From: Rhizophagus irregularis
Lineage: Eukaryota
Length of the DNA stretch: 64,000 nt
Direction of reading: 5' to 3'
Assembly: GCF_026210795.1 (NCBI RefSeq)
Contig: NC_089432.1
Span: 682,001-746,000 of the forward strand
In this document: one piece after another, positions 12,810-64,000 of the stretch
Layout of the letters: every line of letters starts with the position of its first letter
Numbering within the stretch: the stretch's first letter is position 1
Made by a program: the position numbers and the translations under genes
Notes under the pieces: model-generated
Told to the model about the DNA's origin: nothing
Database searches by the model: none
Seen by the model: the letters and a program-made list of their open reading frames with translations, nothing else

Positions 12810-15547
12810 TTATTTAGCTTCCTCTACCCACTGATCACCCTTCTTATGAAGAACCCTACTCAACACATATGCACGTTTCCCCTGAAAAACAATTCCGCAC
12901 TCAACCAATTTTGTAGTTCTTATCCCGGTGCGGTATTTTTTCTCCTTTATCTGATCTAATGCCTCTTTAGCTTTTTTTTCCATATCTATGTTTTTCTTTT
13001 TCTTATCGTATATTTTGAAATCCATAAGTATTGATACCTCATAAATTACTTTTTCTGTATTTGGTACTATTCTAACATCAAAACGTCCTTCACCAGCTTC
13101 TCTGTTTGAAGACAGCTCATAATTATGATATCGTACTGGTGAAAGTATGCCAACCATGAGCATATGATAATTAGTTTCCGCTAAGTTATCTGGAACATCA
13201 AAATATGAAAGAGATTCCATTATCATTATTGGAAGTTCTTTCTCAAATTTCGTGAGGTTGCATTGCAAAAGCATCTCCAACATTGTATCTGGATTAAATG
13301 AAATTCTTCTATTTAACCATCCCTTCCATTCTGTGAAAACCTCTGTGTTTGGAATGTATAGATGCCCTTCTTTGTTCATGGTAAGATAACCTCCATAGTA
13401 AAGTAATGTCCATAGTGTATCATTTGCACATTGAGATAATAAATTGTAATCGATATCTCCCATAATCTCCACATTGACCGCGTCTTTTCGGAGCAACATT
13501 ATGGTTTTGTTTCTAAAGTCTTCATTTGAGTGCCAAAGTAATTGTTTGATAGTTGCGGTGCCTCCTGTTATATTTCAAGAAACCATGTTATGAAACAATT
13601 TCTAACAGGGCCAATTAATGCATGCCTTACCTGTATCTACCCAGTGTGCCTCCAAACGATTCGTGCTAATGAATTTATTGATTGACCAAGGATTGTATAA
13701 AGGTATTGTACCATTCGAAGCCATATAACCGTCATACCAATCTTTGACCTTCTTAGCTTGAGACTTTTTGTAATGTTGAAGAATAATGGAAACCTCATCT
13801 TCAGTGAAGCCAAATTTGTCAGCATACTCTTGATCGTGCATTGGGAATACTTGCATGTTGTTAAGCCCTGACAAATATCCTGATTTGGCAACACGGGACA
13901 CACCGACAAGAAGAGCTTTTTCCAAATTGTCGTCATTGCTCTGTATTTGTCAATCCAATCATTTGTTAGGTTATCGCTTGCATGATCTTACGAAGACAGT
14001 CTAAAATATGTAATAAGTGCTTACCTTGAGGAGCGCTCCAAATAGAGAAGCAAAAAAACCACGAGCTTCTTCATAATATTGATACCGATAGGCAATGTCA
14101 AGAGGATGGTCATATTCATCAATTAGGACGATACACTCTTTTCCATGATAATCTTTCAGATACCTAGAAAGGTCAACGAGAACATCATCCATGCGTTTAC
14201 AATTCTCATCTTCAGAACGTATTTGACTGAAACGTGTCTTCTCATAAGGGTCAAGTTTATCATAAACATAATTATGATTTTTGTACAGCATTGCAAACAT
14301 CCCAAATAGCTTGATTTTCATCTTTGACCAAGTTTCACAGCCATCGAAATTCTGCAAAGGAAACGTAAAAAAAAGGCAGATCAACAGAACAATTCACAGT
14401 AGCAGTCCGGATGCAAATAATGCCATACCTTCAAAGAGAGAAAGATGACTGGGTACTTGCAAAAATGTGTGTCAAAAAGGCTCTGTTTCTCCATAATTTT
14501 CATGTCTACGAACAATTCACGGCGGTATTTCTTATTGTCTGGGTGGATGGGAATCGAAAAAAAATCTCTAAGCATCGTGAGGTTAATTGTTTTTCCAAAC
14601 CGCCTTGGCCGAACGATAAGAGAGACTTTCGAATTGCACTCAATGAACTCGGAGATCAGAGATGTCTTATCAAGAAAAGTGCAACCTCCGTTCACAATTT
14701 TGCTGAAGCTGTCCCAGCCAATGGGTATGCTTTTTCCTGCGAAGAGAGTAGCAGTACCATCTAACATAATCGAAAAAGAGATTAGTCTCTATGAAAAGAA
14801 AAAAGGGAAATAAACAAAGAATAGTGCACATACATTTTATCATCTTTTGTCTTTTGCACGAAGGTGACCACGGTGGCACTAGAAAAAATGATTAGAATGA
14901 TTTTGTAAATTACAGAGAATACTAAGGGAGTATATGCCTTCTTTATTCTGCGAATATTTACCTTCCTCTTCTGTACGTGCTCTCTTCAAAGGAGGTTCTT
15001 TGGCTGAATATAGGGATAAAAGAAAAAAGAAGAAAGGAAATGCAAGTTAGTCGAAAAAGTTGTACAAGATATCCTCAAAGATAAGTATTTTCCGCCATAA
15101 CTTTTCTAATAAAACAGTATTTATACCAAACCAGTACTTACCCGGTTTCTCTATTATGATGTGAATGTGTTTATCGGGAGGATCCTCAACAAAAATGTTT
15201 TTAATATAGTCATCCGGGTTTAATGGCACACCTCCGAGTTGCTTTTTAATATCAATCCCTGCGTGAACATTTGGTACGTCTTGTAATTTTGTTAGTTTAT
15301 CGTCCTTGTCTTCTGGCTTTGTGGAAATGGACACCTTCCATAACCTTAACTCGTTGGCTATAAAGGTGTACCTGTAATATTCGCATAACAGTTTTTTGAA
15401 ATGATCAATATTGAGTTTTTCGAAACTGATTTTCTCTCGTCCTATCTTTTTTCCTTCAGTCCTACTAATATTAATCGTGAAACGGTCCTCGATACTGTCG
15501 CCTAAAACAAGACAAAAAATAATCATTATGTCGTTTAAGTTAGACAT
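12810..15547 (-). CDS. Crinkler (CRN)-type protein: CRN ubiquitin-like N-terminus + AAA-ATPase-like NTPase + PD-(D/E)XK nuclease; ~7 exons (approx. 15547-15142, 15003-14962, 14878-14834, 14760-14429, 14351-14025, 13940-13631, 13564-12810)
   Basis: CRN N-terminal motifs IFCLVLGD, LRLWKV and HIHIII. Basic linkers PPLKRAR and KRQK. Walker A RPRRFGKT, Walker B IVLIDEYD, and SGLNN, FGFTEDEV, WYDGY, YNPWS motifs. Nuclease NREAGEGRFD...MDFK...ALDQIKEKKY. GT-AG introns join the ORF pieces. Confidence 0.88.
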
Positions 15548-16804
15548 GTTTATGCGCTATTTACAGGTATATATACAAAAATATGGTTGTTAAAGGTGAC
15601 CAACGTTGATAAACGATGAATATGTTTCGAAAGAGTATAATAATGTTGCGTAACACTGAGTAAAATTCGCACGTCTGAAATGTGTGTCAGGTTGACGGCG
15701 CAATGTGGTGCAGTAATTTCAAAAAATCTTTAACTTTTTTATGTAATGCTTTCAAATTTACACATTATGTGTATTTTAATCTGTTTTACAAAATTCACTT
15801 ATAAATGGAAGGAGGTTTTGGAAGTAGATTTGACTTTAGTATATAAAAACCGATTTTATCGTTTTTGCCGATCATTTCCAAAATTGGATTTGTCAAAAAA
15901 AAGGTTTTTGTTAAATAACTCGAAAATGCACCACCGTAGGATCTTGTGTAAATATCGAAATGTCATTTTTTTGTTATGTGGTAAATAAATAATGAGGATG
16001 ATCTAGGTTAAGTTGCGCACGATGTATTGTAAATGGTTATTTATGTGGGTAGCCTAAACATAACGCCCACGTGATTGCAGTGTTTTTAAATATTAGATAA
16101 CAGTTTTTAATTGATTTAATAATTAAATGGTGTGAACCCATTTTTTATTATCTAAATCACTTAACAAGAAATGATTCATGCCATTTCTTTATTAAACCTA
16201 TTGTTTGTTATCAAATTACTAATCAAAAATGGGTTCGCACCATATTTATTATCAAATGGCTAATAATTTAATAATATAACAGTGCGAACTCTTAAAACTT
16301 CAAAGATTTTTAAAATTAATTTTAACCCTTACAATTTAAGGGATAGTTAAATAAAGTATAATGCTTAAAAGCTTACTAACTTGTACTTAGTAATTATCCT
16401 AGTTTTTCTAATAAAGATTAAAATATACATTTTATAATTTGTTAAATAAAATTTATTATATCAAATAAATTAATATGCAATACATTTTATTTCAGTGATG
16501 TTTGTCATTAATGTCAAAATATTAGCTGTAAAATTTAACTAATATACTTTGTTATATTCTATTTAAAGATTTGAATAAATGTTTTATGTAATATTTTATA
16601 ACTTACTATAAAGTTGAGTTACTAAACATTTTATGAAGTATTCTAGGAGTAGATACTAGTAAATTTCCAACAAGTATGTATCAATTTTAATTTTTTCAAT
16701 AAAAAGTTCATGAAACGAACGATTTTCTTTTTATTTAATACTTAAAAAATTTTCCAAAGTATGTTGAATAAAGCAAAAATGATATTATTAAGAAAAGTAA
16801 ATAA

Positions 16805-44969: not shown

Positions 44970-46706
44970 TGATAAAAAACGTTATTTTAACGTTACTTTA
45001 ATGTTTTTTTAAATTAACTATGATAAAAAAAATGGTATATAACGTTAAATAACGTTATTTTAACATGTTTTATAATAAAAAATGTTATATGACGTTAAAT
45101 AACGTTATTTTAACATGTTTTATAATAAAAAATGGTATATGACGTTAAATAACGTTATTTTAACATGTTTTATAATAAAAAATGGTATATGACGTTAAAT
45201 AACGTTATTTTAACATGTTTTATAATAAAAGAACGTTATATGACGTTAAATAACGTTATTTTAACATGTTTTATAATAAAAAATGGTATATGACGTTAAA
45301 TAACGTTATTTTAACATGTTTTATAATAAAAAATGGTATATGACGTTAAATAACGTTATTTTAACATGTTTTATAATAAAAAATGTTATATGACGTTAAA
45401 TAACGTTATTTTAACATGTTTTATAATAAAAAAATGTTATATGACGTTAAATAACGTTATTTAACATGTTTTACAATAAAAAAATGGTATATGACGTTAA
45501 ATAACGTTATTTAACATTATTTTAACATGTCTTATAATAAAAAAACGTTATATAACGTTATATAACGTTATTTTAACATGTTTTATAATAAAAGAACGTT
45601 ATATAACGTTATATAACGTTATTTTAACATGTTTTATAATAAAAGAACGTTATATAACGTTATATAACGTTATTTTAACATGTTTTATAATAAAAGAACG
45701 TTATATAACGTTATATAACGTTATTTTAACATGTTTTATAATAAAAGAACGTTATATAACGTTATATAACGTTATTTTAACATGTTTTATAATAAAAGAA
45801 CGTTATATAACGTTATATAACGTTATTTTAACATGTTTTATAATAAAAGAACGTTATATAACGTTATAATAAAAGAACGTTATATAACATTATTTAACGT
45901 TGTTTTAACATGTTTTATAATAAAAAATGGTATATGACGTTAAATAACGTTATTTTAACATGTTTTATAATAAAAAAATGTTATATGACGTTAAATAACG
46001 TTATTTAACATTATTTTAACATGTCTTATAATAAAAAAACGTTATTCTAACATGTCTTATAATGGAAAAACGTTATATAACGTTATTTTAACGTTATTTA
46101 ACATTTCTTATGATAAAAAAACGTTATTTTAACGTTATTTAACATTTCTTATGATAAAAAAACGTTATTTTAACGTTATTTAACATTTCTTATGATAAAA
46201 AAACGTTATTTTAACGTTATTTTAACATTTCTTATGATAAAAAATGTTATATAACGTTATTTTAACATGTTTTATAATAAAAGAACGTTATATAACGTTA
46301 TTTAACGTTATTTTAACATGTTTTATAATAAAAGAACGTTATATAACGTTATATAACGTTATTTTAACATGTTTTATAATAAAAGAACGTTATATAACGT
46401 TATATAACGTTATTTTAACATGTTTTATAATAAAAGAACGTTATATAACGTTATATAACGTTATTTTAACATGTTTTATAATAAAAAATGTTATATGACG
46501 TTATTTTAACATGTTTTATAATAAAAGAACGTTATATAACATTATTTAACGTTGTTTTAACATGTTTTATAATAAAAAATGGTATATGACGTTAAATAAC
46601 GTTATTTTAACATGTTTTATAATAAAAAATGTAATATGACGTTAAATAACGTTATTTTAACATGTTTTATAATAAAAAATGTTATATGACGTTATTTAAC
46701 GTTATT
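44970..46706. repeat. AT-rich satellite array of 50/51/41-bp units built from ~10-bp TAACGTTA-type subunits
   Basis: 50-bp unit AACGTTATTTTAACATGTTTTATAATAAAAAATGGTATATGACGTTAAAT, a 51-bp variant containing GAACGTTATATAACGTTATAT, and a 41-bp variant at ~46081-46240. Roughly 35 units. Confidence 0.95.
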
Positions 46707-47343
46707 TTTCCAATATCTACTGCGCCACCCAAAGTGCAATACAAGATCTTAGAGAATGCGAAATGAAAATAACAGCTAATACATAAAATATTTAAATGAA
46801 CATGAATTTTCAATCACTAAATATTACTTAAGGGTTTTATATTTAAGAATCCTTGGATAAATTAGTTTTTAACTGTAAATAAAAATATTGGCAAAATTAA
46901 ATTTTTGTTTTGTGCAAGAACAAAAATCGATCGACATAATATTAAAAAATGTGATTTATTCGTGATCTATCAAATTAACATTCATCTTTAGTAGCACAGT
47001 TAAATTCAGTGCAAAAAGTTAACATTATGATTGACTGTCTATGTACTGTACATGTACATGTACAGTACATGTTCATGTTAATGTACTGTACATGTACATG
47101 TATAAGTACATAAGTTATATAAGATTTGATGGACCTTTTTTTACCAAAAAGGAAATTTTTTTCAATTTCATGGCAATTCTGCATGTGGGTAAATATCAAA
47201 TTAAGAAACGATGTACATATATTCGAATTAATAAATTTGATAAATTTATAAAATGATTGACAAATGATTGACATAAAAATAACTACTTTTGTAAAAAACG
47301 CCCAACAAAAGATTATCTCTGTGTTAAAATAAATTAATAATAC

Positions 47344-48400
47344 GATGATAACTCTCTCTCCTTTCTCTCACTTTTCTTAATGGAAATAATATTTCACTCA
47401 TTTTAAAATACTCGTATTTAAAGAAGTTGCCCTAAATACCTGGTTAAAACACCAACTTGGTTTCCGCTACTTGTCTCTATTGGGTCCAGCGGCACTTGTT
47501 CATATGTTTTGAACGACTTTGGTTATAAGGTTGAAGATTCCAAGCTGGAAGGAAGAAATTTCCATTTCGCTCAGTGGTGAAAGTTCGCTTTCTTAATAAT
47601 AAGGGGTTGTTCCTGGTGATAGTTTGGTGAAGTTTCCCTCTTTACCTAGGTTTTTACTCCTTTGGGTTGGTTTTCCTAGGGTTATGAATTTTTCTTATTT
47701 TTTTGGTGAATTTTTCTCGTCTTTCTTTTTTGCCTTCTGCTTTTTGGAGTTTTTCTGGGGGGTAGGGGGGTATCCCAAAATTGATCGACATCAGGTGGTT
47801 TGTAGATCTTTTCTTTTGAGAGAGTTGGGTGTAATTTAAGGGGGGTGCAGATCTTGGTGATCAGTTTTTGGTCAGGTGAGGTCAAGGTGGTACATATTTG
47901 GACTATCATGGGTTTTTTTCTGCAGTTTAGTTTAGATTGGAGGGATCGTTCGAAATGAGGTGGGTGTCCTTTTGGGGATTGCACGACACTAAAAAGTTCC
48001 CCTTTAGTTTACTCTTAGGTAGTTTATTAACTCTGGTAATATAGTCACTTGGAGAATTTATTTTTATCGACCAGTGTGGGGGGATTTTTCCAACCAGGGG
48101 CTGGCGGTTCAGTTTGATAATCTGCGGGGTACGGGCTTCAACTTACCAAAACTTAGGTTTACCTAGGCGAGAGTATGGGAGGCAGTGGCGTTATCTGGGT
48201 TTTTGTGTCGTGGGGTCTAATTTTAGTATCTCACATTATACCTTCTTCCTGTTAATTGCCCACCGGTTTGAGTAGATTATTTTCGCGTGTAGTTTAGTTA
48301 GTATTTTTGTCAATTTTGACTTATATGTAATTTTCTACTTATAATCGCGTCCATGTTAGGTTTCTAACTGGAACCCATTAATAAAAATAAAAATAAAAAT
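47344..48400 (+). mobile_element. ~1.06-kb retroposed element without recognisable coding capacity (SINE-like passenger, or 3' end of a second LINE family)
   Basis: Bounded by AAATTAATAATAC at 47331-47343 and 48401-48413. TAAAAA-repeat tail at ~48379-48400. Shares 3' motif blocks with the LINE 3' UTR. G/T-rich top strand. Confidence 0.8.
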
Positions 48401-48413
48401 AAATTAATAATAC

Positions 48414-49070
48414 TGATCCTAACGTGTTTACTTTTATTGACATTATTAAAGGAATTATACCTATGTCACTTTCGGATTTGTTGAATTCTTGGACTACAAA
48501 GAAAAATGTTGTTGTTGTTTTGATTCAAATGAGACAGTTTATTTTCAATGAAATATTTGAAGAGGTTTGGATTCCACGGTGTTCGCACCTGAAGGAATTT
48601 GAACGTTCGTTAGGGTTGACTAAAAAGAAAAAATTAAAGTTTAAAAGTGTTCGTTCATTACCTAATAATAATAGTAGTAATAATAATATTATTCATTATG
48701 ATTCTTTAGATAGTGTTAGAAATTACATTTATTTTGGCAAAAATATAATAGAATTTTATACTAATCTTACTTCGTAGCGCCATTGTAGATTTTAGTAGTT
48801 GATTTATATAATTTTATAGGGTCAATTTTACTTTCTTCTGCAGGGCGGGCTTCAACTTACCAAGTTTTGGCTAGTGTATGGGAGGTAGTGGGTTAATTAA
48901 AGAAATGGTTTTTAGGTGTAGTTGGTTATATCTTTAATAGTTTCGTATTTAATTGCCCCACCGTCGAAGTAGATTCTTCTGATAGTTTAGTTCATTTTTT
49001 TATTTTACTTTTTCATTTTTGATATGTTTATAAAATTTGTTTTCGCTAACTATTACTGTTTAATAAAAAT
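48414..49070 (+). mobile_element. Heavily 5'-truncated LINE copy (ORF2 C-terminus + 3' UTR)
   Basis: Aligns with 55680-56335. Encodes DPNVFTFIDIIKG...FYTNLTS* (to 48777), followed by a short tail and AAATTAATAATAC at 49071-49083. Confidence 0.95.
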
Positions 49071-49083
49071 AAATTAATAATAC

Positions 49084-50574
49084 GGACTCTTTCAATACAA
49101 CACACAATTACCTATCGTTCAAATTGGTAAACAAGGGGCAAAGGTATCATTTTTGGATAAAGAAAAATTTGACCAATTTCTTAAAATGGAAATTGTTATT
49201 CAGGAGCAAAAAGAAGGTGATTCAGGTGTAGTGTTTAATGTGAAACTTCAACCTACCCCATTGAAGCCTGAGAAGGTGCCTACTACAAATGATAAGAATA
49301 GTGATATGTCACAAAATTCCAATAGTTGTACAATTCAAGTAATCGACATTCCTGCGTATAGGCAGGTACGCGAAATTCGTGAGTCCTTTGAAGATCTTGG
49401 TGAAATTGAGAAAATTTATACACGAGGTGCTGGTCTTTACCAAGTTGCTTTCATTACGTATAAAGATGCGAATTCTATTGATTATTTCAATGAACAATGG
49501 AGCTATCATATTAATAAAGACATAGTTAGAGTTTTACCCCTGTTATTGAGCAAGGAGGAACGCGAGAAAAGGAAGCAATTCTCGTTAAGATTATCAGGTT
49601 TACATTATCAAACTAGTGGTTATGATCTTAAGGAAGTTATGACACAATGTAAAGGGAAAACTTGTTTCATCCCAGCTGTTATGATTCGTGGTAAATATCA
49701 AAGGTGTCGATATGCTTACATTCATTTTTCTTCACAAGATGATTTGGTGGCAGCCAGACAAATGAAAATTGAATTCAAAAAGGGTAACGCAGGTACTCGA
49801 CAATTATACTGGAGTAAAGAGGAAGATCACATTTGTAATATTTGCGGTAATCCCACTCATATGGCCAAAGACTGTACCAACAAAGATATTAACAAATCTC
49901 AATCTAAACGTTTTGTTAGTGGCGCTGATAATTGGAAAAATTTGAAAAAGTCGTATGCGGATGCGACTAAATCTAAACAAAAGCCCAGAAATAGTTCTAA
50001 ATCTAATAATAATATTCCATCTGGATCATGTGATCTAGGAAAAGCTCGCAGCAATCATGATAATGATGATGACGATAGTGAAGATTTCAATAATCATCCG
50101 ATGTTTTTAAAATTCAAGGAACAAATTATTAGCACTATAAGAAAGGTGGAAGACAAAATGCTTAAAATGGAATCACTCATTGTTGACACTGGCAAGCAAA
50201 TTAGTGAAGTTGTTACTGCACAACAAGCGCTTAAATGTGATAAAGCGCATCCGGTCCCAACTAGTATGAAAAAGAAAAATCAACAATCTGTTTCTGGTGC
50301 AGAAGTTAAAGCAGCGAAAAAACGCTGTAAAAGTGACTCTGAATCAAGTGAAGATGAAGATGAACTAGCAAATAAATCCGTTCTTCAATCACAACAATTT
50401 CAGAAATCTGATCAAAATATCCAAAGCATTGTTGCACAACAAAAACAAATACAAGAAAACCACAAGGAAACTAAATCCTTACTCTCATCACTTTACAACA
50501 TGTTAGCTGGCGGCCCTTCAGCTTCATCATTATTGGGGGATAATGATGAAGTTTTTGATGATTCTGTCATATAA
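49084..50574 (+). pseudogene. LINE ORF1 of copy A (RRM-like domains, CCHC zinc knuckle, coiled coil), N-terminally truncated
   Basis: IQVIDIP...VAFITY and LRLSGL...YAYIHF RRM-like segments; CNICGNPTHMAKDC knuckle. Lacks the N-terminal ~220 aa seen in copy B. Confidence 0.85.
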
Positions 50575-50583
50575 TTATTTTTA

Positions 50584-53500
50584 ATGATGAACAATAATAT
50601 AATATCTCCCTCTAGTTCAACTTCTCAACAACAAAAAAATTTCCCCCAAATAGAAAATAACAATCCATTAATTACTAAAAATTTTTTAAAAAATTCTTCA
50701 ATAACGAAAATAGCTACTACGAATATTCGTACCCTTAGTAAAGACAAATTAATTTTCACGTTAGATGCGATGAAAAACAATGATATTGACATATATGGAT
50801 TAGCCGAGACTAATCTTTCTTATAGACAATCGAAAATATGGCAACAACAATTTGGTTTCCATGGTTATTTTGATTATTCACAACAAGGGGGTAAAAGTCA
50901 AGGTGTAGGAATTATCGTTAGCAATAAATACGATATTTTTGTTCATAAAGCGGTTGGTCATAAAGGCCGTGTTATATATCTAGACTTAAATTTTAGTCAA
51001 AAGAAAAATGTTAGGTTAATTCAGGTGTACATTAACGCTAATAAAAAAGAAAGAACACAAATTGAGGAGCTATATCAATATATCGAAAATACTATTGATG
51101 ATGCGAAAAACAAGAATATGGAAATAATCATTATGGGTGATTTCAATATTAATTATAGAAAATATTTGATGGCATTTGTTAATAATAGATGGTATTTCAA
51201 ATTGTTCAAAATGCTAGAAAACAGACACTTCTTAGATACAATTCCAATATTTAACGAAGATGACGAAAATATATATACTTATATTCCGCCTAATGATTCT
51301 AATGAAAAATCAAGAATAGATTATATTTGGGCTTCATTACCAATACTTGGCCAAAGTTTGAATAGTACTGTAATAGAAAATGATCATTTTACAACTGATC
51401 ATAATACTGTCACTTTATCGCTTGATACACAATTATTTATAGGAAAAACATTACCTAAGATTAACAAAAGTAAAAAGAAAATAACTCGTACTGTGTTTTT
51501 ATATGATGAAATGGATCAGGAAGATGATGAATTTACATGGGATAATTTCCGTGCTGGTTTGGATCATGAAATCGAAAGACTCAAACTAAAGGATCGATCG
51601 ATCACGAAAAGAAAACATGTTGATCATGTGTGGGATTCTCTTAGACAACTTATCATGAAATCTGCTAATGAAAATATAAAAAACAAAAAAGTTATAAAAC
51701 AGAAAATCAAATGTGCTCCTGAGAAAAAGTTGTCCGTTTACTTTGACTTAAGATATATTATTAATCGTATTCAAGAAATCCGCTCATGTATCACAGGATT
51801 AAGAAACTATCCAAATCAGGAAACGATCGACAAATGGATTAATTATCAAAACACGATAATTAAACTAAAAGACAAGTACGAGTTAGTTACTTCTGATACT
51901 AGTTTTAATTTCTTAAATAATGATCAGTTCCATAGTTATCTTGACGAACTTAATGAAATTAGAAAACAATTGAGAATTGTTTTTAAACTTGAACTTAACA
52001 TTATGGAACAAGAACAAATTATCTCTAACATCAAAAAGCGATGTGATAATTATAAAGATGATCAAGGGAGAATGATTCAATCTATTACAGAAAAAGAAAT
52101 GGTTTCTATTTCAATTGAAAAAATTTATAAGAAAGATCATAATGGTAATGAAGTTTTAATTACAGATGAGAATCAGGTGATGGAAGAAACAAATTGTCAT
52201 TTTCAAACAGTAGCGGGCTCTGTTAATAGAAAGAAACCAATACAAGGCAGATGGAAAGAACAATATAAACCACAGCCTCATATTAACGAAAATATATATT
52301 CTGGTATTATGGACGCTCCATCTTATGATGAATGGTTAGATATTATTCGACAACTATCTAATGGAAAAGCGACAGGACCTTCAGGCGTGTCGAATGAAAT
52401 GTTGAAACATCTAAGTGATGATTGTAATCATATTTTATATTATTTAATTTGTAAGATTATAGAATTGGGATATTTACCAAAACAATGGAAAGAAGCGACG
52501 GTCTTTCCTATTGCTAAACCTAAACCCTTTAATTGTGAATTATCAAACTCTCGCCCTATTACTCTTTTAGAAACCACTCGAAAAGCACTCATTTCTTTGC
52601 TAAATCGTCGTTTAACAATTATTTTGAAAGATAATAACGTATTAAAGGCAAACCAATTCGCGGGTCTGCCTAAACAATCAACATTTGAACCGATAAGGAT
52701 TATGAACGAAGTTATTCAAGATTCAATCGATAATAATAATGAATTATGGATACTCTCTCAGGATATGGGAAAGGCCTATGATCGTGTGAACATCTTTCAA
52801 CTCAAAAAAGCGATGGATAGAATTAAAATTCCTAACGAATTTTCATCCCTCATTTTAGAACTTTTTAAAGATAGAAAAAATCAAGTAATCACTGCGTATG
52901 GAAAAACTACACCTTATGATGTTCTTACAGGAATCGATCAAGGAGAAGTTATTTCACCGTTGCTTTGGTGTATTTATTACGATCCTCTTTTAGCAGAAAT
53001 TAATAAACAACAATTGGGATATAATATTTCTTGTATATCAAAATCAGTTGTTCAAGAAGAAGGTGTTCTTAATCAACAAAATGTTTCCATTATGGCGTAT
53101 ATGGATGATACTCAATGGATTACTGATGAAAAATCAAAATTGGAAAAAATGTTATACATCGCTGATACATTTTATCGTCTTAACGATATTCAAATTAACA
53201 AAGAAAAGTCTGAGCTTATGATGCGGTCTACAACTGAGAAGCGTAAATATTCTCATAATTACAATGATAAAATTTCAATCAAATTTGGTCGTGAAGAAAT
53301 TAATATTAAAGCCAAACATCCACACGAACCTATGCGTATCCTGGGAGTATATTTCAATATTGAATATGATGGAAATTATTTGATGTTCAAGATCAAGAAT
53401 GAAATAGACCATTTAGTTAATCTTATGTATAAAAAGAAGATTACTGATAAACATATTTTATATATATTTAATAGAATTATCGTCCCTCGAGTTGAATACT

Positions 53501-56044
53501 GGTCACAAGTTATGGCTTTATCAAAAACACAAACAGAATCTTTAATTATTCCTTTTAGAAGGATGTTTAAAAACAAACTAAAATTCGCTCGTTCAGCGCC
53601 TAACGCTATACTCGATAATCCTTATATATATGGATATAGAGATTTTTACGACAATCAACTTCAAGCCAAAATTACGGATTTTTGTATTCAACTTAACGAC
53701 AATGGTCTCTTAGGAAAAGTTACTGAAATTCGTTTAAAATCCTTACAGGATCAATTATGGACATCGCGCCCATTAATAGAAAAACTTCCTTATAATCGTG
53801 TTCCGCACACACGAAAAAATAATTATATTCTTAATATGCTTTTATTATGCTATGATAATAATATTTCGTTAGAATATTTAGATGATAATATTTTTCCATC
53901 AATTAAAGGAGGTAAAATTCCTTTGGAAGACGTGGTAGATAATGCATATTATTCTAAACATAGGAAGAGACTTCGTGAAAAGAATATCTTATTTTTAGAT
54001 CAAATTATTTCAGGTGATAAATTTCGTTTATTGTTATGGAAAGAAATACTTATTAAGGCTTATATTCCTATTTTTTCACAACGGAAAGAAACTAAATGGT
54101 ATTCAGATATTAGAAATTTAATTACTTCAGATGGTGTTCATTTGAATCATAATATAACACAATTATTTGGCGCTCGTGTTGATAATGTGGAAGAGACTCG
54201 ATCATATGATATTAATAAAAAAAATAGATCTTTAGTTGCATGTTATAATTCACAATTTAACTCTGTAGTCATTGGAAAGATTCAAAGAATAGATGAAACA
54301 AAACGACCTGTTATTAAACATTTTCATATTGATATGTCTCGATGTACCGATACACATACTTATATATATCAATGTATGGAATATGGATGTGCTGCTAATG
54401 CATCATTATCAACTCGATCACCTTGTACGTTTTCTGCTGACTGGGAATGTTTAGTACCATTATTAACAGATTCTCAATTTGCGCCTAGTCAACTTATAAA
54501 CTTAATAGAATTTAATATTTTTGACATTTTTGATTTTGCAAAAAAGAAATATGATATTATAAATCAAGCGTTAACGCAAAATCACGTGATTTCTCCTTCT
54601 TCACAATTACAAGATAATATAATTTTAGATTTATTAGATTCTTCAACTTCAAGAAATGACTTGTTAACTATACAACGAACATTAGCTCCTTTTGACAATA
54701 ACAATTATTATATTTTTGAATTTTACACTGATGGATCTTTAATCGAATTAGGTACTGAGCAGTGTAGTATCAGTTGCGCCTTCGCTCAGATTAGTGATTT
54801 GTTTGATATACCTCATGTCGAATTTTATTCTACTATTGATAAATAGCCTTCTGCATATAGAGGAGAATTGTTAGCTGTTCTTTTAGCATTAAGCGTTGTT
54901 CCAAAAAATAGTAAAGTTAGAATTAACACAGACTCGCTTAACGTGATTACTCAATTTGAAAAATTGAAGAAGTCAAGATTTTCTCAAACCTCACGTGAAT
55001 ACTTTAAGGCTAATAATAATTTCTTATGGGCTATTTTATGTAGAATCATATTAACATTGAACTTGCATGTGGAAATGTTTAAGGTTGTTGCTCATGGTGA
55101 TGATATGGGTAATAATTATGTAGATAATTTGGCGAAAATTGCACATACTGATCAAGATCGCTATATAGTTTTACGACAGAACGCTTGTATGATGAAAGTT
55201 CTTCCTTGTTGGAATGGAATTATTATTGAAAATAAGCTGCACTCATTTTTGAAAAATATATGCAACTACAAAGGTTTAGAAAAATTTATTAATTTGAATA
55301 GAAATTCTAAATATCGCACGCTAGAAGTCGACTGGACATTCACATTTAGTTGTTTAAATTGTGACATAAATAACAATGAAACTTCTGTTTCTTCTTCTAA
55401 AACGAAAGCTCAAAAAGTTCACTTGTTAATTGAAGAAATTCCTACAATTGAACAGATGAAGAAATCATTGTTTGACTTATATGATGGTTGGATGTGCCCT
55501 ATATGTGGTCTACAAGATGAAACCTTTAATCATGTCTGGACGTGTAGTGGTCATTATGATATTATTAACAACATTCGAGATAAGACTATTAATCATCTCT
55601 TAACTTGGATATTAGAATATAATGATAATATACAAGATTTTAATGCTCTTATGGCACTTGATATATGGGATATATCTTATGATCCTAACGTGTTTACTTT
55701 TATTGACTTGATTAAAGGTATTATACCTATGTCACTTTCAGAATTATTGAATTCCTGGACTACAAAGAAAAATGTTGTTGATGTTTTGGTTCAAATGAGA
55801 CAGTTTATTTTTAATGCTATATTCGAAGAAGTTTGGATTCCAAGGTGTTCGCATTTGAAGGAATTTGAACATTCTATAGGATTAACTAAAAAGAAAAAAA
55901 TTAGAATTCAAAAGCGTTCGTTCATTACCTAGTAATAATAGTAGTTATACTAATAATATTCATTATGATTCTTTAGATAGTGTTAGGAATTACATTTATT
56001 TTGGTAAAAATATAATAGAATTTTATACTAATCTTACTTCGTAG
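50584..56044 (+). pseudogene. LINE ORF2 of copy A: AP endonuclease - reverse transcriptase - RNase H - CCHC finger; disrupted
   Basis: APE motifs TTNIR, GLAET, MGDFN, SRIDYIW, TDH. RT motifs KATGPSG, RPITLLE, QDMGKAYD, GIDQG, YMDD. RNase H motifs YTDGS, ELLA, NTDS, AH...GNNYVD. C-terminal CPICGLQDETFNHVWTC. In-frame TAG at 54844-54846 (TGG in copy B) and an extra A at ~55895-55899. Confidence 0.93.
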
Positions 56045-56476
56045 CGCCATCGTAGATTTTAGTAGTTTGATTTATATAATTTTATAGGGTCAATTTTACT
56101 TTCTTCTGCAGGGCGGGCTTCAACTTACCAAGTTTCGGCTAGTGTATGGGAGGTAGTGGGTTAATTAAAGAAATGGTTTTTAGGTGTAGTTGGTTATATC
56201 TTTAATAGTTTCGTATTTAATTGCCCCACCGTCAAAGTAGATTCTTCTGATAGTTTAGTTCATTTTTTTATTTTACTTCTTCATTTCTGATATGTTTATA
56301 AAATTTGTATTCGCTAACTATTACTGTTCAATAAAAATAAAAATAAAAATAAAAATAAAAAATAAAAATAAATTAATAATACTAAAATGATTATCTGGGT
56401 GTTAATTCACATAAAAATATGGCAAATTGTTAAAATCGCTTAAAATCCGCAGTAAATATTTAACAATTTATAGAAA

Positions 56477-58625
56477 ATGTCTGGAAACGCTAAACGAGGT
56501 GGTAGAGGTGGTAGACAAACACGTAGCTCAAGCCGTAATTCCCAAGCAGGTGGAAGTAGGCCAACTAGTCCTGAAAACCAGTTCACCTTCAGTGCACCGA
56601 AGGAAACTGCTTCTCATCATGAGAGTATTTGGAATACCTATCGGAAAAAGCCGCAGCCAACTTCTGACAAAAAACTGACAGAAACCATGGAAGCTGAACG
56701 TGCTATGGACATGGAAAAAGAAATTGTTCAGGATACTTATGGTCCAAACTCCAAATCTTCTTCTGGTAACAACTAAGGGAAAGCTACTGAAAAGTCCAAG
56801 CCGGTCGCGAAAGATTTGTCACGTGACCCTCCCTTACCTCCGCAGAATATTGTTAACAACGTGAATGGAACCAATAAGATTCCGACTCTTAACAAAGAAA
56901 TTACTTCAACTCCTCATAAAGATCAACAACAATCTGTTGTATTGCCTAATCAGGAAAAGATTAATCTGCAAGTTGATCAAGGGTCCCAGCCCATGGATGT
57001 TGATCCTAGTACTTCTAACAAAGACCCGTCGATCATCACTATAGAAAAAGTAAAAGAACACATTGCACTTGTTCCATATGGTGAGCTTATTGGAGGAAAA
57101 AATCTGAAAACTACTAAAATTAAAAAGGCACTACAAACCTATAATATCCAATATAACAAACAACTTCCAGTTACCCCGTTGGGGAAACAAGGGGCCAAGG
57201 TATCATTTTTAGATAAAGAAAAATTTGACCAATTTCTCAAAATGGAACTAATTATTCAGGAGCAAAAAGAAGGCGATTCGGGTGAAGTGTTTAATGTGAA
57301 ACTCCAACCTACCCCATTAAAACCTGAAAAGGTGGCTACTACAAACGACAATAATAATGACATGTCACAAAATTCCAACAGTCGTACAATTCAAGTGATC
57401 GATATTCCTGCATTTCGACAGGTACGCGAAATTCGTGAGTCCTTTGAAGATCTTGGTGAAATTGAGAAAATTTATACGAGAGGTGCTGGTCTTTACCAAG
57501 TTGCCTTCATTACGTATAAGGATGCTACTTCTATTGATTACTTTAAAGAGCAATGGAGCTATCATATTAATAAAGACATAGTTAGAGTCTTACCTTTGTT
57601 ATTGAGCAAGGAGGAACGCGAGAATAGGAAGCAATTCTCGTTAAGATTGTCAGGATTACATTATCAAACTAGTGGTTATGATCTCAAGGAAGTTATGACA
57701 CAATGTAAAGGGAAAACTTGTTTTATCCCAGCTGTTATGATTCGTGGTAAATATCAAAGATGTCGCTATGCTTACATCCATTTTTCTTCGAGAGATGATT
57801 TGGTGGCAGCCAGACAAATGAATATTGAATTTAAAAAAGGCCACGCTGGTACTCGACATTTATATTGGAGCAAAGAAGAAGACCGCATTTGTAATATTTG
57901 CGGTAATCCCACTCATATGGCCAAAGACTGTACTAACAAAGATATTAACAAATCTCATTCCAAACGGTTTGTTAGTGGTGCTGATAATTGGAAAAATTTA
58001 AAAAGTCGTATGCAGATGCGGCTAAATCTAAACAAAATTCCAGAAATAATTCTAAATTTAATAAAAATATTCCCTCTGGATCACGTGATCAAGGAAGACC
58101 TCGCAGTAATCATGATAATAATGACGACGATAGTGATGATTTTAATAACCATCCGATGTTTTTAAAATTCAAGGAACAAATTATTAACACTATAAGGAAG
58201 GTTGAAGATAAATTGCTCAATATGGAGTCGCTTATTAGCGATACTGGCAAGCAAATTGGTGAAGTTGTTACGGCTCAACAAGCGCTTAAATGTGATAAAG
58301 CGCATCCAGTTCCGATTAATAAGAAAAAGAATAATCATCAATCTGGTAATAATACAGAAGTTAAAGCGAAAAGACGCTGTAAAAGTGATTCTGAATCAAG
58401 TGAAGATGAAGATGAACTCGCGAATAAGTCCATTATTCAATCACAACAATTCCAAAAATCTGATCAAAACATTCAAAGTATTGTTGCTCAACAGAAGCAA
58501 ATACAACAAAATCACCAGGAAACTAAATCCTTACTTTCATCTCTTTACAACATGTTAGCTGGTGGCCCTTCAGCTTCGTCATTATTGGGGATAATGATGA
58601 AGTTTTTGAGGATTCTGCCGTATAA
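56477..58625 (+). pseudogene. LINE ORF1 of copy B, disrupted
   Basis: Starts MSGNAKRGGRGGR. In-frame TAA at 56774-56776. Single-base deletions relative to copy A at ~58000 and ~58588. RRM-like and CCHC domains as in copy A. Confidence 0.88.
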
Positions 58626-58633
58626 TTATTTTT

Positions 58634-61600
58634 ATGATGAACAATAATATAATTTCTCCTTCTAGTTCGAACATTCAACAACAAAAAAATTTCCCCCAAA
58701 TAGAAAATAACAACCCAATTATTACAAAAGATTCTTTAAAAAATTTTTCAATAACGAAAATAGCTACTACGAATATTCGTACCCTTAGTAAAGACAAATT
58801 AATTTTTACGTTAGATGCGATGAAAAATAATGATATTGACATATATGGATTAGCTGAGACTAATCTTTCTTATAGACAATCGAAAATTTGGCAACAACAA
58901 TTTGGTTTCCATGGTTATTTTGATTATTCACAACAAGGGGGTAAAGGTCAAGGCATAGGAATTATCGTTAGCGATAAATACGATATATTTGTTCATAAAG
59001 CGGTTGGTCATAAAGGCCGTGTTATATATTTAGACTTAAATTTTAGTCAAAAGAAAAATGTTAGGTTACTTCAGGTGTACATTAACGCTAACAAAAATGA
59101 AAGAACACAAATTGAGGAACTTTATCAATATATCGAAAATGTTATCGATGACGCGAAAAACAAAAATATGGAAATAATCATTATGGGTGATTTCAACATT
59201 AATTATAGAAAATATTTGATGTCATTTGTTAATAATAGATGGTATTTCAAATTGTTCAAAATGCTAGAAAACAGACACCTTTTAGATACAATTCCGATAT
59301 TCAACGAAGATGACGAAAATATATATACTTATATTCCGCCTAATGATTCTAATGAAAAATCAAGAATAGATTATATTTGGGCTTCATTACCAATACTTGG
59401 CCAAAGTTTGAATAGTACTGTAATAGAAAATGATCATTTTACAACTGATCATAATACTGTCACTTTATCGCTTGATACACAATTATTTATAGGAAAAACA
59501 TTACCTAAGATTAACAAAAGTAAAAAGAAAATAACTCGTACTGTGTTTTTATATGATGAAATGGATCAGGAAGATGATGAATTTACATGGGATAATTTCC
59601 GTGCTGGTTTGGATCATGAAATCGAAAGACTCAAACTAAAGGATCGATCGATCACGAAAAGAAAACATGTTGATCATGTGTGGGATTCTCTTAGACAACT
59701 TATCATGAAATCTGCTAATGAAAATATAAAAAACAAAAAAGTGATAAAACAGAAAATCAAATGTGCTCCTGAGAAAAAGTTGTCAGTTTACTTTGATTTA
59801 AGATATATCATTAATCGTATTCAAGAAATCCGCTCATGTATCACAAAATTAAGAAACCATCCAAATCAGGAAATGATCGACAAATGGATTAATTATCAAA
59901 ATGCGATAATTAAATTAAAAGACAAGTATGAGTTAGTTACTTCTGACAATAATTTTAATTTCTTAGATAATGATCAGTTCCATAGATATCTTGATGAACT
60001 TAATGAAATTAGAAAACAATTGAGAATTGTTTTTAAACTTGAACTTAATATTATGGAACAAGAACAAATTATCTCTAACATCAAGAAGCGATGTGATAAT
60101 TATAAAGAAGATCAAGGAAGAATGATTCAATCTATTACAGAAAAAGAAATGGTTTCCATTTTTATTGAAAAAATTTATAAGAAAGATCATAATGGTAATG
60201 AAGTCTTAATTACAGATGAGAATCACATGATAGAAGAAACAAATCGTCATTTTCAAACAGTGGCAGGCTCTGTTAATCGAAAGAAACCAATACAAGGCAG
60301 ATGGAAAGAGCAATATAAACCACAGTCTCATATTAACGAAAATATATACTCTAGCATTATGGACGCTCCATCTTATGATGAATGGTTAGATATTATTCGA
60401 CAACTATCTAATGGAAAAGCGACAGGACCTTCTGGCGTGTCGAATGAAATGTTAAAACATCTAAGTGATGATTGTAATCATATTTTATATTATTTAATTT
60501 GTAAGATTATAGAATTGGGATATTTACCAAAACAATGGAAAGATGCGATGGTCTTTCCTATTGCTAAACCTAAACCCTTTAATTGTGAATTATCAAACTC
60601 TCGCCCTATTACTCTTTTAGAAACCACTCGAAAAGCACTTATTTCCTTGCTAAATCGTCGTTTAGCAATCATTTTGAAAGATAATAATGTACTAAAGGCA
60701 AATCAATTCGCTGGTCTGCCTAAACAATCAACATTTGAACCGATAAGGATTATGAACGAAGTTATTCAAGATTCAATCGATAATAATAATGAATTATGGA
60801 TACTCTCTCAGGATATGGGAAAGGCTTATGATCGTGTGAACATCTTTCAACTCAAAAAAGCGATGGATAGAATTAAAATTCCTAACGATTTTTCATCTCT
60901 CATTTTAGAACTTTTTAAAGATAGAAAAAATCAAGTAATCACTGCGTATGGAAAAACTGCACCTTATGATGTTCTTACAGGAATCGATCAAGAAGAAGTT
61001 ATTTCACCGTTACTTTGGTGTATTTATTACGATCCTCTTTTAGCAGAAATTGATAAACAACAATTGGGATATAATATTTCTTGTATATCAAAATCAGTTG
61101 TTCAAGAAGAAGGTGTACTCAATCAACAAAATGTTTCCATTATGGCGTATATGGATGATACTCAATGGATTACTGATGAAAAATCGAAATTGGAAAAGAT
61201 GTTATACATTGCTGATACATTTTATCATCTTAATGATATTCAAATCAACAAAGAAAAGTCTGAGCTTATGATGAGAACTACAACTGAGAAGCGTAAATAT
61301 TCTCATAATTACAATGACAAAATTTCAATCAAGTTTGGTCGTGAAGAAATTAATATTAAAGCCAAACATCCACACGAACCTATGCGTATCCTGGGAGTGT
61401 ATTTTAATATTGAACATGATGGAAATTATCTAATGTTCAAAATCAAGAATGAAATAGACCATTTAGTTAATCTTATGTATAAAAAGAAGATTACTGATAA
61501 ACATATTTTGTATATATTTAATAGAATTATCGTTCCTCGAGTTGAATACTGGTCACAAGTTATGGCTTTATCAAAAACACAAACAGAATCTTTAATTATT

Positions 61601-64000
61601 CCTTTTAGAAGGATGTTTAAAAACAAATTAAAATTCGCTCGTTCAGCGCCTAACGCTATACTTGATAATCCTTATATATATGGATATAGAGATTTTTACG
61701 ACAATCAACTTCAAGCCAAAATTACTGATTTTTGTATTCAACTTAATGATAATGGTCTATTAGGAAAAGTTACTGAAATTCGTTTAAAATCCTTACAGGA
61801 TCAATTATGGACATCGCGCCCATTGATAGAAAAACTTCCTTATAATCGTGTTTCGCATACACGAAAAAATAATTATATTCTTAATATGCTTTTATTATGT
61901 TATGATAACAATATTTCGTTAGAAAATTTAGATAAATTTATTTTTCCATCAATTAAAGGAGGTACAATTCCTTTGGAAGACGTGGTTGATAATGCATATT
62001 ATTCCAAATATAGGATGAGACTTCGTGAAAAGAATATTTTATTTTTAGATCAAATTATTTCAGGTGATAAATCTCGTTTATTGTTATGGAAAGAAATACT
62101 TATTAAGGCTTATATTCCTGTTTTTTCACAACGGAAAGAAACTAAATGGTATTCAGATATTAGAAACTTAATTACTTCAGATGGTGTTCATTTGATTCTT
62201 AATATAACACAATTATTTGGCGCTCGTGTTGACAATGTGGAAGAGGCTCGATCATATGATATTGCTAAAAAAAATAGATCTTTAATAGCCGTTTATAATT
62301 CACAATTTAACTCCGTAGTTATTGGTAAAATTCAAGGAATAGATGATACACAACGACCTGTTATTAAACATTTTCATATTGATATGTCTAGATGTACCAA
62401 TACACATACTTATATATATCAATGTATGGAATATGGATGTGCTGCTAATGCATCATTATCAATACGATCACCTTGTACGTTTTCTGCTGACTGGGAATGT
62501 TTAGTACCATTATTAACAGATTCTCAATTTGCACCTAGTCAACTTACAAACTTAATAGAATTTAATATTTTTGACATTTTTGATTTTGCAAAAAAGAAGT
62601 ATGATATTATACATCAAGCGTTAACGCAAAATCACGTGATTTCATCACAAGTGCAAGATAATATAATTTTGGATTTATTAGATTCTTCAACTTCAAGAAA
62701 TGACTTGTTAACTATACAACGCACATTAGCTCCTTTTGACAACAACAATTATTATATTTTTGAGTTTTACACCGATGGATCATTAATAGAATTAGGTACT
62801 GAACAATGTAGTATTAGTTGCGCTTTCGCTCAGATTAGTGATTTATTTGATATACCTCATGTAGAATTTTATTCTACTATTGATAAATGGCCTTCTGCAT
62901 ATAGAGGAGAATTATTAGCAGTCCTTTTAGCATTAAGCGTTGTTCCAAAAAATAGCAAAGTTAGAATTAATACAGATTCGCTTAACGTAATTACACAATT
63001 TGAAAAATTAAAGAACTCAAGATTTTCTCAAACTTCACGAGAATACTTTAAGACTAATAATAATTTCTTATGAGCTATTTTATGTAGAATTATATTAACA
63101 TTGAACTTGCATGTGGAAATGTTTAAAGTTGTTGCTCATGGTGATGATATGGGTAATAATTATGTAGATAATTTGGCAAAAATTGCACATACTGATCAGG
63201 ATCGCTATATAGTTTTTCAACGGGATGCTTGTATGATGAAAGTTCTTCCTTGTTGGAATGGGATTATTATTGAAAATAAGCTGCGTTCATTTTTGAAAAA
63301 TATATGCAACTACAAAGGATTGGAAAAATTTATTAATTTAAACAGAAATTCTAAATATCGCACGTTAGAAGTTGACTGGACATCCACATTTAGTTGTTTA
63401 AATTGTGATATAAATAACAATGAAACTTCTGTTTCTTCTTCTAAAACGAAAGCTCAAAAAGTTCACTTGTTAATTGAAGAAATTCCTACAATTGAACAGA
63501 TGAAGAAATCATTGCTTGACTTATATGATGGTTGGATGTGCCCTATATGTGGACTACAAGACGAAACTTTTAATCATGTCTGGACGTGTAGTGGTCATTA
63601 TGATATTATTCACAACATTAGAGATAAGACTATTATTCATCTCTTGACCTGGATTTTGGAATATAATGATAATATACACGATTTTAATGCTCTTATGGCG
63701 CTTGATATATGGGATATATCTTATGATCCTAACGTATTTACTTTCATCGATCTTATTAAAGGACTTATACCTATGTCACTTTCAGATTTGTTGAGTTCTT
63801 GGACTACAAAGAATAACGTTGCTGATGTTTTAATTCAAATGAGGCAGTTTATTTTTAATGAGATATTTGAAGAGGTTTGGATTCCAAGGTGTTCGCATTT
63901 GAAGGAATTTGAACGTTCTTTAGGGTTGACTAAAAAGAAAAAATTAGAGTTTAAAAGCGTTCGTTTATTACCTAATAATAATAATAGTAATAATAATATT
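58634..64000 (+). pseudogene. LINE ORF2 of copy B (APE-RT-RNaseH-CCHC), disrupted, incomplete at the window edge
   Basis: Same motifs as copy A. In-frame TGA at 63071-63073 (TGG in copy A). RT motif reads GIDQE instead of GIDQG. Confidence 0.93.

Follow-up and report, generated by a model that had tools for sequence, protein, structure and literature searches.

A 3' motif shared by a LINE and a likely non-autonomous retroposon in Rhizophagus irregularis is probably a recognition tail of the stringent type

Several described systems, cited here from passages of the papers named, come close to the pair of elements reported below. Stringent LINEs depend on a 3' stem-loop of their own, the cognate one, which is bound by the region between their endonuclease and reverse transcriptase (RT) domains (PMC4176376), and SINEs borrow such LINE tails, two fungal pairs being among the cases described (PMC3747384). 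R2 of Bombyx mori relies on a multi-stem 3' UTR RNA to choose the template that is copied by target-primed reverse transcription (PMC11194090). A SINE-like element of Blumeria graminis, Eg-R1, is taken as being transcribed by RNA polymerase II (pol II) (PMC6022598). As for the root-symbiotic fungus Rhizophagus irregularis, SINE and several LINE groups have been listed, SINEs are reported to be upregulated in colonised roots (Oliveira and Corradi 2024, PMC11075540), and about two-thirds of the repeats of Rhizophagus were unclassified (PMC11075540). Neither tail sharing nor RNA structure is described for the SINE/LINE families of this fungus in the passages, section 5 or supplement of PMC11075540, and the passages of PMC11952901 describe no analysis of SINE/LINE tails. 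Our literature search found no description of the LINE/passenger pair presented here, nor the strings of its motif in literature text or in one supplement; a consensus library on GitHub may already contain the family.

The window, by which we mean the whole 64,000-nt stretch of R. irregularis DNA that was analysed, is AT-rich and eukaryotic in character, with genes bearing Sel1, kinase and TPR domains, and roots, rhizosphere and soil are among the sources of the read runs in which it occurs. From position 47344 on, it holds an array of four head-to-tail units with 17 identical bases at every junction (Table 1): a passenger of 1.07 kb in which no gene is recognisable, a LINE end of 670 bp, a LINE of 7.3 kb that is cut within ORF1, and a further LINE. 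The four exact copies of the 17-bp repeat start at 47327, 48397, 49067 and 56366, all of them at unit junctions; with two mismatches permitted, 0.92 copies are expected by chance, and four were reached in 2 of 100 shuffles. Since the sequence 3' of 56383 is similar to that 5' of 47327, the first three units probably lie in one A-rich site that was hit three times, and their ending at one 17-bp duplication (47327-56382) suggests repeated insertion with one nick and a fixed second cut. Targeting would not be strict, because other copies of the passenger carry other flanks. Elsewhere in the window, we noted that units of 50-51 nt, each with inverted symmetry inside it, form a satellite-like array immediately 5' of the insertion site (44977-46710), and we also noted two minus-strand frames (12813-13574 and 15050-15556) with matches to a PD-(D/E)XK nuclease family and to the Crinkler N-terminal domain, and another G+T-rich stretch with a terminal (TAAAAA)n tail (~1150-1378), where a further LINE or passenger family may have its end.

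Table 1. Coordinates of the array, of the shared motif with its predicted helices, and of the helix in a distant LINE group
Feature	Position	Strand	Basis
First of four 17-bp direct repeats, AAATAAATTAATAATAC; probably a target-site duplication	47327..47343	+	exact-copy count
Passenger: body of ~1.04 kb, (TAAAAA)n tail and downstream duplication	47344..48413	+	
63-nt piece inside the passenger, common to other repeats	47941..48003	+	cover and flanks
Motif, passenger copy	48117..48280	+	
Passenger P1	48117-25/48272-80	+	prediction
Passenger P2	48132-34/48263-65	+	prediction
Passenger P3	48135-39/48179-83	+	prediction
Passenger P4	48144-46/48173-75	+	prediction
Passenger hairpin P5	48152-67	+	prediction
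Passenger variable arm P6	48185-48263	+	prediction
Fifth shared block TAGTTTAGTT, 3' of the motif	48290..48299	+ (passenger)	
Passenger (TAAAAA)n tail, then 17-bp repeat	48380..48413	+	
5'-truncated LINE copy: last 124 ORF2 codons, 3' UTR, short tail, 17-bp repeat	48414..49083	+	
Motif, LINE copy A	48837..48975	+	
LINE copy A P1	48837-41/48969-73	+	prediction
LINE copy A P2	48844-48/48961-65	+	prediction
LINE copy A P3	48849-53/48882-86	+	prediction
LINE copy A P4	48858-60/48876-78	+	prediction
LINE copy A P5	48863-72	+	prediction
LINE copy A P6	48889-48900/48949-60	+	prediction
LINE copy cut within ORF1; ORF2 with APE endonuclease, RT and RNase H	49084..56382	+	domain matches
Motif, LINE copy B; P5 loop UUCG	56105..56243	+	
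Target-like sequence resumes, then apparently full-length LINE copy (ORF1 ATG 56477), leaving the window before its UTR	56383..64000	+	
Helix loci of the distant LINE group	L007:6661-6826, L019:1356-1522, L027:705-875, L030:850-1015, L033:1444-1608, L038:1250-1409, L039:414-574		

LINEs of the I group (I/R1/Tad1) have an ORF1 with RRM and CCHC domains and an ORF2 with APE, RT and RNase H domains. The LINE of the array presents this domain set, the ORF1 matches being weak (E 0.004-0.007, below Pfam cut-offs), and its RT matches those of R2 and L1 in the PDB with similar scores. The copy cut within ORF1 carries a single in-frame stop (54844-54846) plus a shifted end, and the short copy upstream is 93.6% identical to its end over 669 nt. 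Among 1373 candidates, the C-terminal 361 aa of ORF2 have 43 relatives, the best being an R. irregularis protein with 94% identity over 98% of this part and others coming from R. clarus, R. diaphanus and Glomus cerebriforme. Unlike this two-ORF element, R2 has a single ORF and inserts in 28S rDNA, according to the passages of PMC11194090.

The passenger has the build of a non-autonomous retroposon in full length, its 5' end being fixed. It codes for neither RT nor endonuclease, ends in a (TAAAAA)n tail followed by a 17-bp duplication, and is interspersed with different flanks; contigs of three DNA-type runs start at 47347-47350, with different 5' flanks in runs X1 and X2. Cover of the passenger is far above that of its left flank in X3 and X1, and in X3 reaches 430-1160 over most of the body versus ~29 on the flank, read depth being no copy number. 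Its composition is G+T-rich (63%), with 24 T runs of at least 4 nt, and its longest stop-to-stop frames measure 108 and 78 aa; for the frame spanning the motif, which alone was compared, no homologue was found among proteins of 41-133 aa. Searches of the passenger gave no tRNA (ARAGORN), no Rfam match up to E 10 and no box B on its + strand. It therefore has none of the heads of a classical SINE (SINE1/2/3), which derive from tRNA, 7SL or 5S RNA and carry pol III boxes. Since it has many T runs and no box B, and has an AATAAA before the tail, its RNA would be made by pol II. In a polyA library, one 978-nt contig spans 47422-48372, which as a contig cannot prove transcription; it shows 11 differences from the passenger and none within the motif (chance of none 0.12). 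The LINE part and left flank have no cover in polyA run X17, which we did not count as absence, and five further RNA runs share 0.42-0.52 of words.

These properties make the passenger more like Eg-R1 than like a tRNA SINE, insofar as the passages of PMC6022598 describe Eg-R1: it too is SINE-like, lacks pol III boxes, has internal T runs and an AAUAAA signal, and was found as polyA RNA. The two also differ, since Eg-R1 insertions are described there without a genomic A tail and with no partner-LINE tail named, whereas the passenger ends in (TAAAAA)n and carries a motif that comes from a LINE, and no peptide is shown for it. The passenger looks composite, with one piece in common with another repeat, because 63 nt inside it (47941-48003) have several-fold deeper cover and occur elsewhere between other flanks and as tandem subunits of ~30 nt.

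Beyond the 3' UTR and tail, the passenger has no similarity to the LINE, the LINE ORFs included. Because it stands between other flanks elsewhere, has a (TAAAAA)n tail and a LINE-like 17-bp duplication and matches neither tRNA nor Rfam, it most likely rides the neighbouring LINE. Judged from the sequence, its dependence on that LINE is well supported, since tail repeat and duplication are the same in both and a stretch of the 3' UTR is common to them. It is this stretch that a sequence-only reading of the window had singled out, proposing four blocks conserved in order in the passenger and the two LINE UTRs. All four lie where that reading had placed them, and a fifth block follows 3' of the motif (Table 1). 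The similarity is far above chance, the local score of passenger against LINE UTR being 146, compared with 59.9±7.6 (maximum 88) for 500 dinucleotide shuffles, while an 18-nt block occurs three times in the window with up to three mismatches versus 0.02 expected. The stretch 5' of the motif is unrelated in passenger and LINE (1628 of 2000 shuffles as good). As for the spacers, which had been described as entirely different, the middle one shows no significant similarity (248 of 2000 shuffles as good), but the UTRs 3' of the motif are weakly similar (20 of 2000).

How block-like this conservation is bears on a rival explanation, which we consider unlikely, namely plain descent: a whole LINE 3' UTR would have been captured once, mobilisation would need the tail only (relaxed), the blocks would be remnants left by drift, and the pairings would be those that any G+U-rich sequence allows. 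The weak similarity that runs on downstream to the tail agrees with such a history. So does the borderline result for block-like against uniform conservation (P 0.05-0.06), for among 1500 simulations of uniform divergence 5.7% equalled the observed run in length and 5.1% equalled all four; identity in the simulations was 73% against a real 76%, a gap that flatters block-likeness. Conversely, LINE copies A and B have diverged much less in the motif (143 of 145 identical) than in the ORF2 end (332 of 365; Fisher p 0.0014), which speaks against drift, although recombination between subfamilies could also explain it. Conservation of the motif does not exceed that of the remaining UTR (2 differences in 145 versus 6 in 141; p 0.17).

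The motif lies 87-100 nt 5' of the tail, with a U-rich tract 3' of it and an AATAAA before the tail. Classic small stem-loops sit nearer the tail than this. A 3' UTR sequence common to LINE and passenger is one feature of tails of the stringent type, others being a conserved fold that shows compensatory changes and a cognate ORF2p that binds the tail and requires it for retrotransposition, and our analysis suggests that the motif is probably a 3' recognition tail of this LINE/SINE-like kind. We read it as an inherited recognition handle because stringent LINEs, SINE tails and the R2 3' UTR offer precedents. As a separate observation, the LINE UTR at 48822-48843 resembles a 3' splice site (pyrimidine tract, CAG|G) right at the start of the motif, the AG being missing in the passenger.

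Next, we modelled the fold of the motif (Table 1). The pairings that had been proposed by eye all proved possible: P1 between the outer blocks (9 bp long in the passenger and 5 in the LINE), GCUUC with GAGG(C/U), where the C/U difference leaves a G-C or G-U pair, a long stem in the LINE (13 positions, one mismatch), and a hairpin of the passenger's own (6 bp). Two helices had been overlooked: a short one, CGG/CCG, closes a three-way junction, and beneath the variable hairpin lies an irregular stem made of C-G, U.U and UAC/GUA. In the predicted topology, P1 is followed by an internal loop, P2 and a three-way junction bearing two arms, the stem P3-P4-P5 and the long variable P6; the conserved irregular stem runs from P3 through an AA/G loop, the C-G pair, the U.U and P4 to the hairpin P5 as its cap. 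When trimmed to the motif and folded independently, each of the three copies has this topology as its lowest-energy fold, with boundaries that were picked after the motif had been seen. An alternative register (CUUACC/GGGAGG), which fits two changes in one old copy, was rejected as it costs 3.9-5.8 kcal/mol.

The sequence-only reading had proposed a multi-helix element under selection, and our folding tests bear this out in part. In joint folding of passenger and LINE, the observed score was reached by 15 of 511 column shuffles, the total score by 4 and the number of shared pairs by 90, so that the joint fold beats 496 of 511 shuffles, which argues against mere descent. By contrast, folding of single sequences was no better than shuffles (z -0.19 for the passenger, -1.36 for the LINE), nor was RNAalifold on the pair against 1000 shuffles (z -0.17 and -0.19; core arm 0.06), and the z values near -0.2 are in line with plain descent. 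Flanking sequence also weakens the prediction. For the LINE copies set within their natural flanks, the probability of P1-P3 is 0.00-0.11 and that of P6 0.7-1.0, and the three-way-junction model lies 1.5-3.1 kcal/mol above the minimum energy; in a fold that extends to the tail, the passenger retains P3-P5 and loses P1-P2, and in a fold of the whole element P5 alone remains. With all helices imposed in the LINE register, the passenger model lies 2.6 kcal/mol above its minimum. A common multi-helix fold has modest support, and the three-way junction is a plausible form of it.

We also explored how the motif varies, using contigs of four runs, mostly at about single-copy depth, and leaving out changes near the ends of aligned pieces. 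The LINE motif variants comprise at least 17 substitutions and at least six indels, which were assigned to the structure by hand. Of the 17 substitutions listed, 11 affect a loop, a bulge or the variable arm, whereas two keep or strengthen a P5 pair: one at 48870 and one at 48865, seen in all four runs, where contigs turn U-G into C-G with loop letters also altered. One more is at the last P6 pair (48900), whose partner is uncovered in most contigs, and none falls within P3 or the core of P6. The remaining three (48859, 48876 and 48963, each in one contig per run) disrupt core pairs, and one motif copy, again one contig per run, is without 11 nt of the core; such single copies with core-breaking changes are to be expected under plain descent, and no double-sided change in P1-P4 or P6 occurs among the listed variants. 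P5, on the other hand, is a hairpin in all versions observed, with 3 bp in the LINE and 6 bp of unrelated letters in the passenger, and a hairpin kept in spite of unrelated letters speaks against drift alone. Two short-arm variants, known from 30-letter loose ends and assumed to be homologous, have a 4-bp hairpin with a C-G or U-A closing pair at the position of 48876, and both changes in one diverged 3' block, also a loose end, are compatible with P6 if the 5' strand is unchanged. Our data therefore support the view that hairpin P5 can be exchanged, while the core is conserved and free of double-sided changes among these variants.

A multi-helix junction with invariant unpaired letters could also be a self-cleaving ribozyme of an undescribed class, which would trim the read-through transcripts to be expected from a head-to-tail array. 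We regard this as very improbable. No known RNA family had been recognised by eye, and the search of Rfam 15 agreed, giving no match up to E 10, while custom descriptors (used with no positive control) located neither a core of the HDV-like, hammerhead or twister type nor, within the motif, the loop of a hairpin ribozyme. In addition, one RNA-library contig crosses the entire motif, and a cut 90-250 nt before the tail would presumably remove the priming end. Likenesses to U1 snRNA, 5S rRNA and the telomerase template were dropped, Rfam being without a match.

The same lack of an Rfam match counts against the idea that a selected structure serves RNA metabolism rather than ORF2p binding, acting in 3'-end formation, in protection from decay or small-RNA silencing, or in export, to the benefit of both LINE and passenger. 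Its place ~90-100 nt 5' of AATAAA and tail, the U-rich tract after it and the presence of the passenger in a polyA library contig would all suit such a role. The 3' ends of distant relatives, described below, differ in their motifs, a pattern that agrees more with lineage-specific recognition between protein and RNA than with a host pathway, and we think a role in RNA metabolism quite unlikely.

In a protein-led metagenome scan, at least 40 of 592 stretches were confirmed as related LINEs, all distant (29-50% aa identity). The motif is absent from the 40 loci listed (best local scores 28-35), 22 of which extend more than 250 nt beyond the protein match, and its absence there also agrees with plain descent. 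A motif model, weak and built on two independent sequences, matches its own three training copies only (next E 1.3). Pattern scans of DNA found the motif in no viral contig and no prokaryotic genome contig, with no match in phages; 19 viral matches to a shorter 16-letter pattern were discarded as chance, none fitting the model at E<=1. Protein-led scans confirmed none of 79 viral and none of 83 prokaryotic stretches.

One distant LINE group has a 3' UTR helix of its own, with 16 pairs starting near the ORF2 stop and a sequence unrelated to the motif (Table 1). We aligned seven UTRs chosen by eye, excluding near-duplicates (L006, L008, L015) and doubtful cases (L014, L017). In this alignment, 89% of cells are paired and double changes occur at 7 of 16 pairs, a count attained by 71 of 500 shuffles; the covariation score, for a structure taken from the same alignment, was reached by 1 of 500 shuffles and was lower at every slide. 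The loop of the inner arm is often UAGG. Covariation is better in this helix than in the passenger/LINE motif. From the helix it follows that structured 3' UTRs peculiar to a lineage can be maintained among these LINEs; for the motif, this amounts to indirect support only. A second distant group (six UTRs) aligned poorly. The UTR of a further relative (L002:1043-1134 and L010:1304-1395) ends in a (TAAAAA)n tail and appears by eye to have two overlapping helices and a possible pseudoknot; a likeness of the motif to this UTR, and to the tailed repeat at 1150-1378, was also noted by eye and is not significant, nor is that repeat significantly similar to L002/L010.

Taken as a recognition tail, the motif would work as follows. 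Through template switching or recombination, an unrelated RNA would have picked up the tail of the LINE, giving the passenger. In its RNA, P1 and P2 are predicted to close the junction, from which branch the irregular stem P3-P4, capped by the exchangeable P5, and the long variable arm P6. ORF2p may bind the conserved stem of the shared 140-165-nt stretch, nick an A-rich target and prime on the tail ~90-100 nt 3' of the motif, as in target-primed reverse transcription. That the passenger is a non-autonomous retroposon with a diverged LINE 3' UTR, whose motif lets ORF2p take up both RNAs, is the reading we favour and hold to be reasonably likely. In the relevant passages, the ZfL2-1/ZfL2-2 pair (PMC4176376) has the same arrangement, a non-coding passenger with a structured part of the partner-LINE 3' UTR and the tail repeat, the structure being a prediction in our case; fungal Mg-SINE/MgL and SINE2-1_BG/Tad1-24_BG and maize ZmSINE-type tails (PMC3747384) show the same likeness. 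Unlike those LINE/SINE pairs as described there, which have a small terminal stem-loop, ours has a predicted three-way junction of 140-165 nt at ~90-100 nt from the tail, and its passenger is 1 kb long and has no tRNA head.

A bolder version, which we put forward tentatively, is that an RNase H-bearing fungal LINE lineage picks its templates via a large, lineage-specific three-way junction 90-100 nt from the tail, and that a 1-kb pol II-type, root-expressed non-coding RNA became a full-length passenger by grafting of this module, with hairpin and long arm exchanged. The module would then be a portable address label.

Together, these findings indicate a real motif tail of a known kind, which probably has a function. 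The principle itself is textbook; what is unusual here is the large motif, its distance from the tail and the headless 1-kb cargo. For a SINE-like family of Rhizophagus, it is now possible to name a LINE as partner, together with a candidate signal for recognition. As a natural pair with an identical core and exchanged arms, LINE and passenger offer a ready-made design with which the choice of RNA by an APE-RT-RNase H enzyme can be mapped, and the pair suggests that a LINE enzyme can carry an unrelated cargo of 1 kb.
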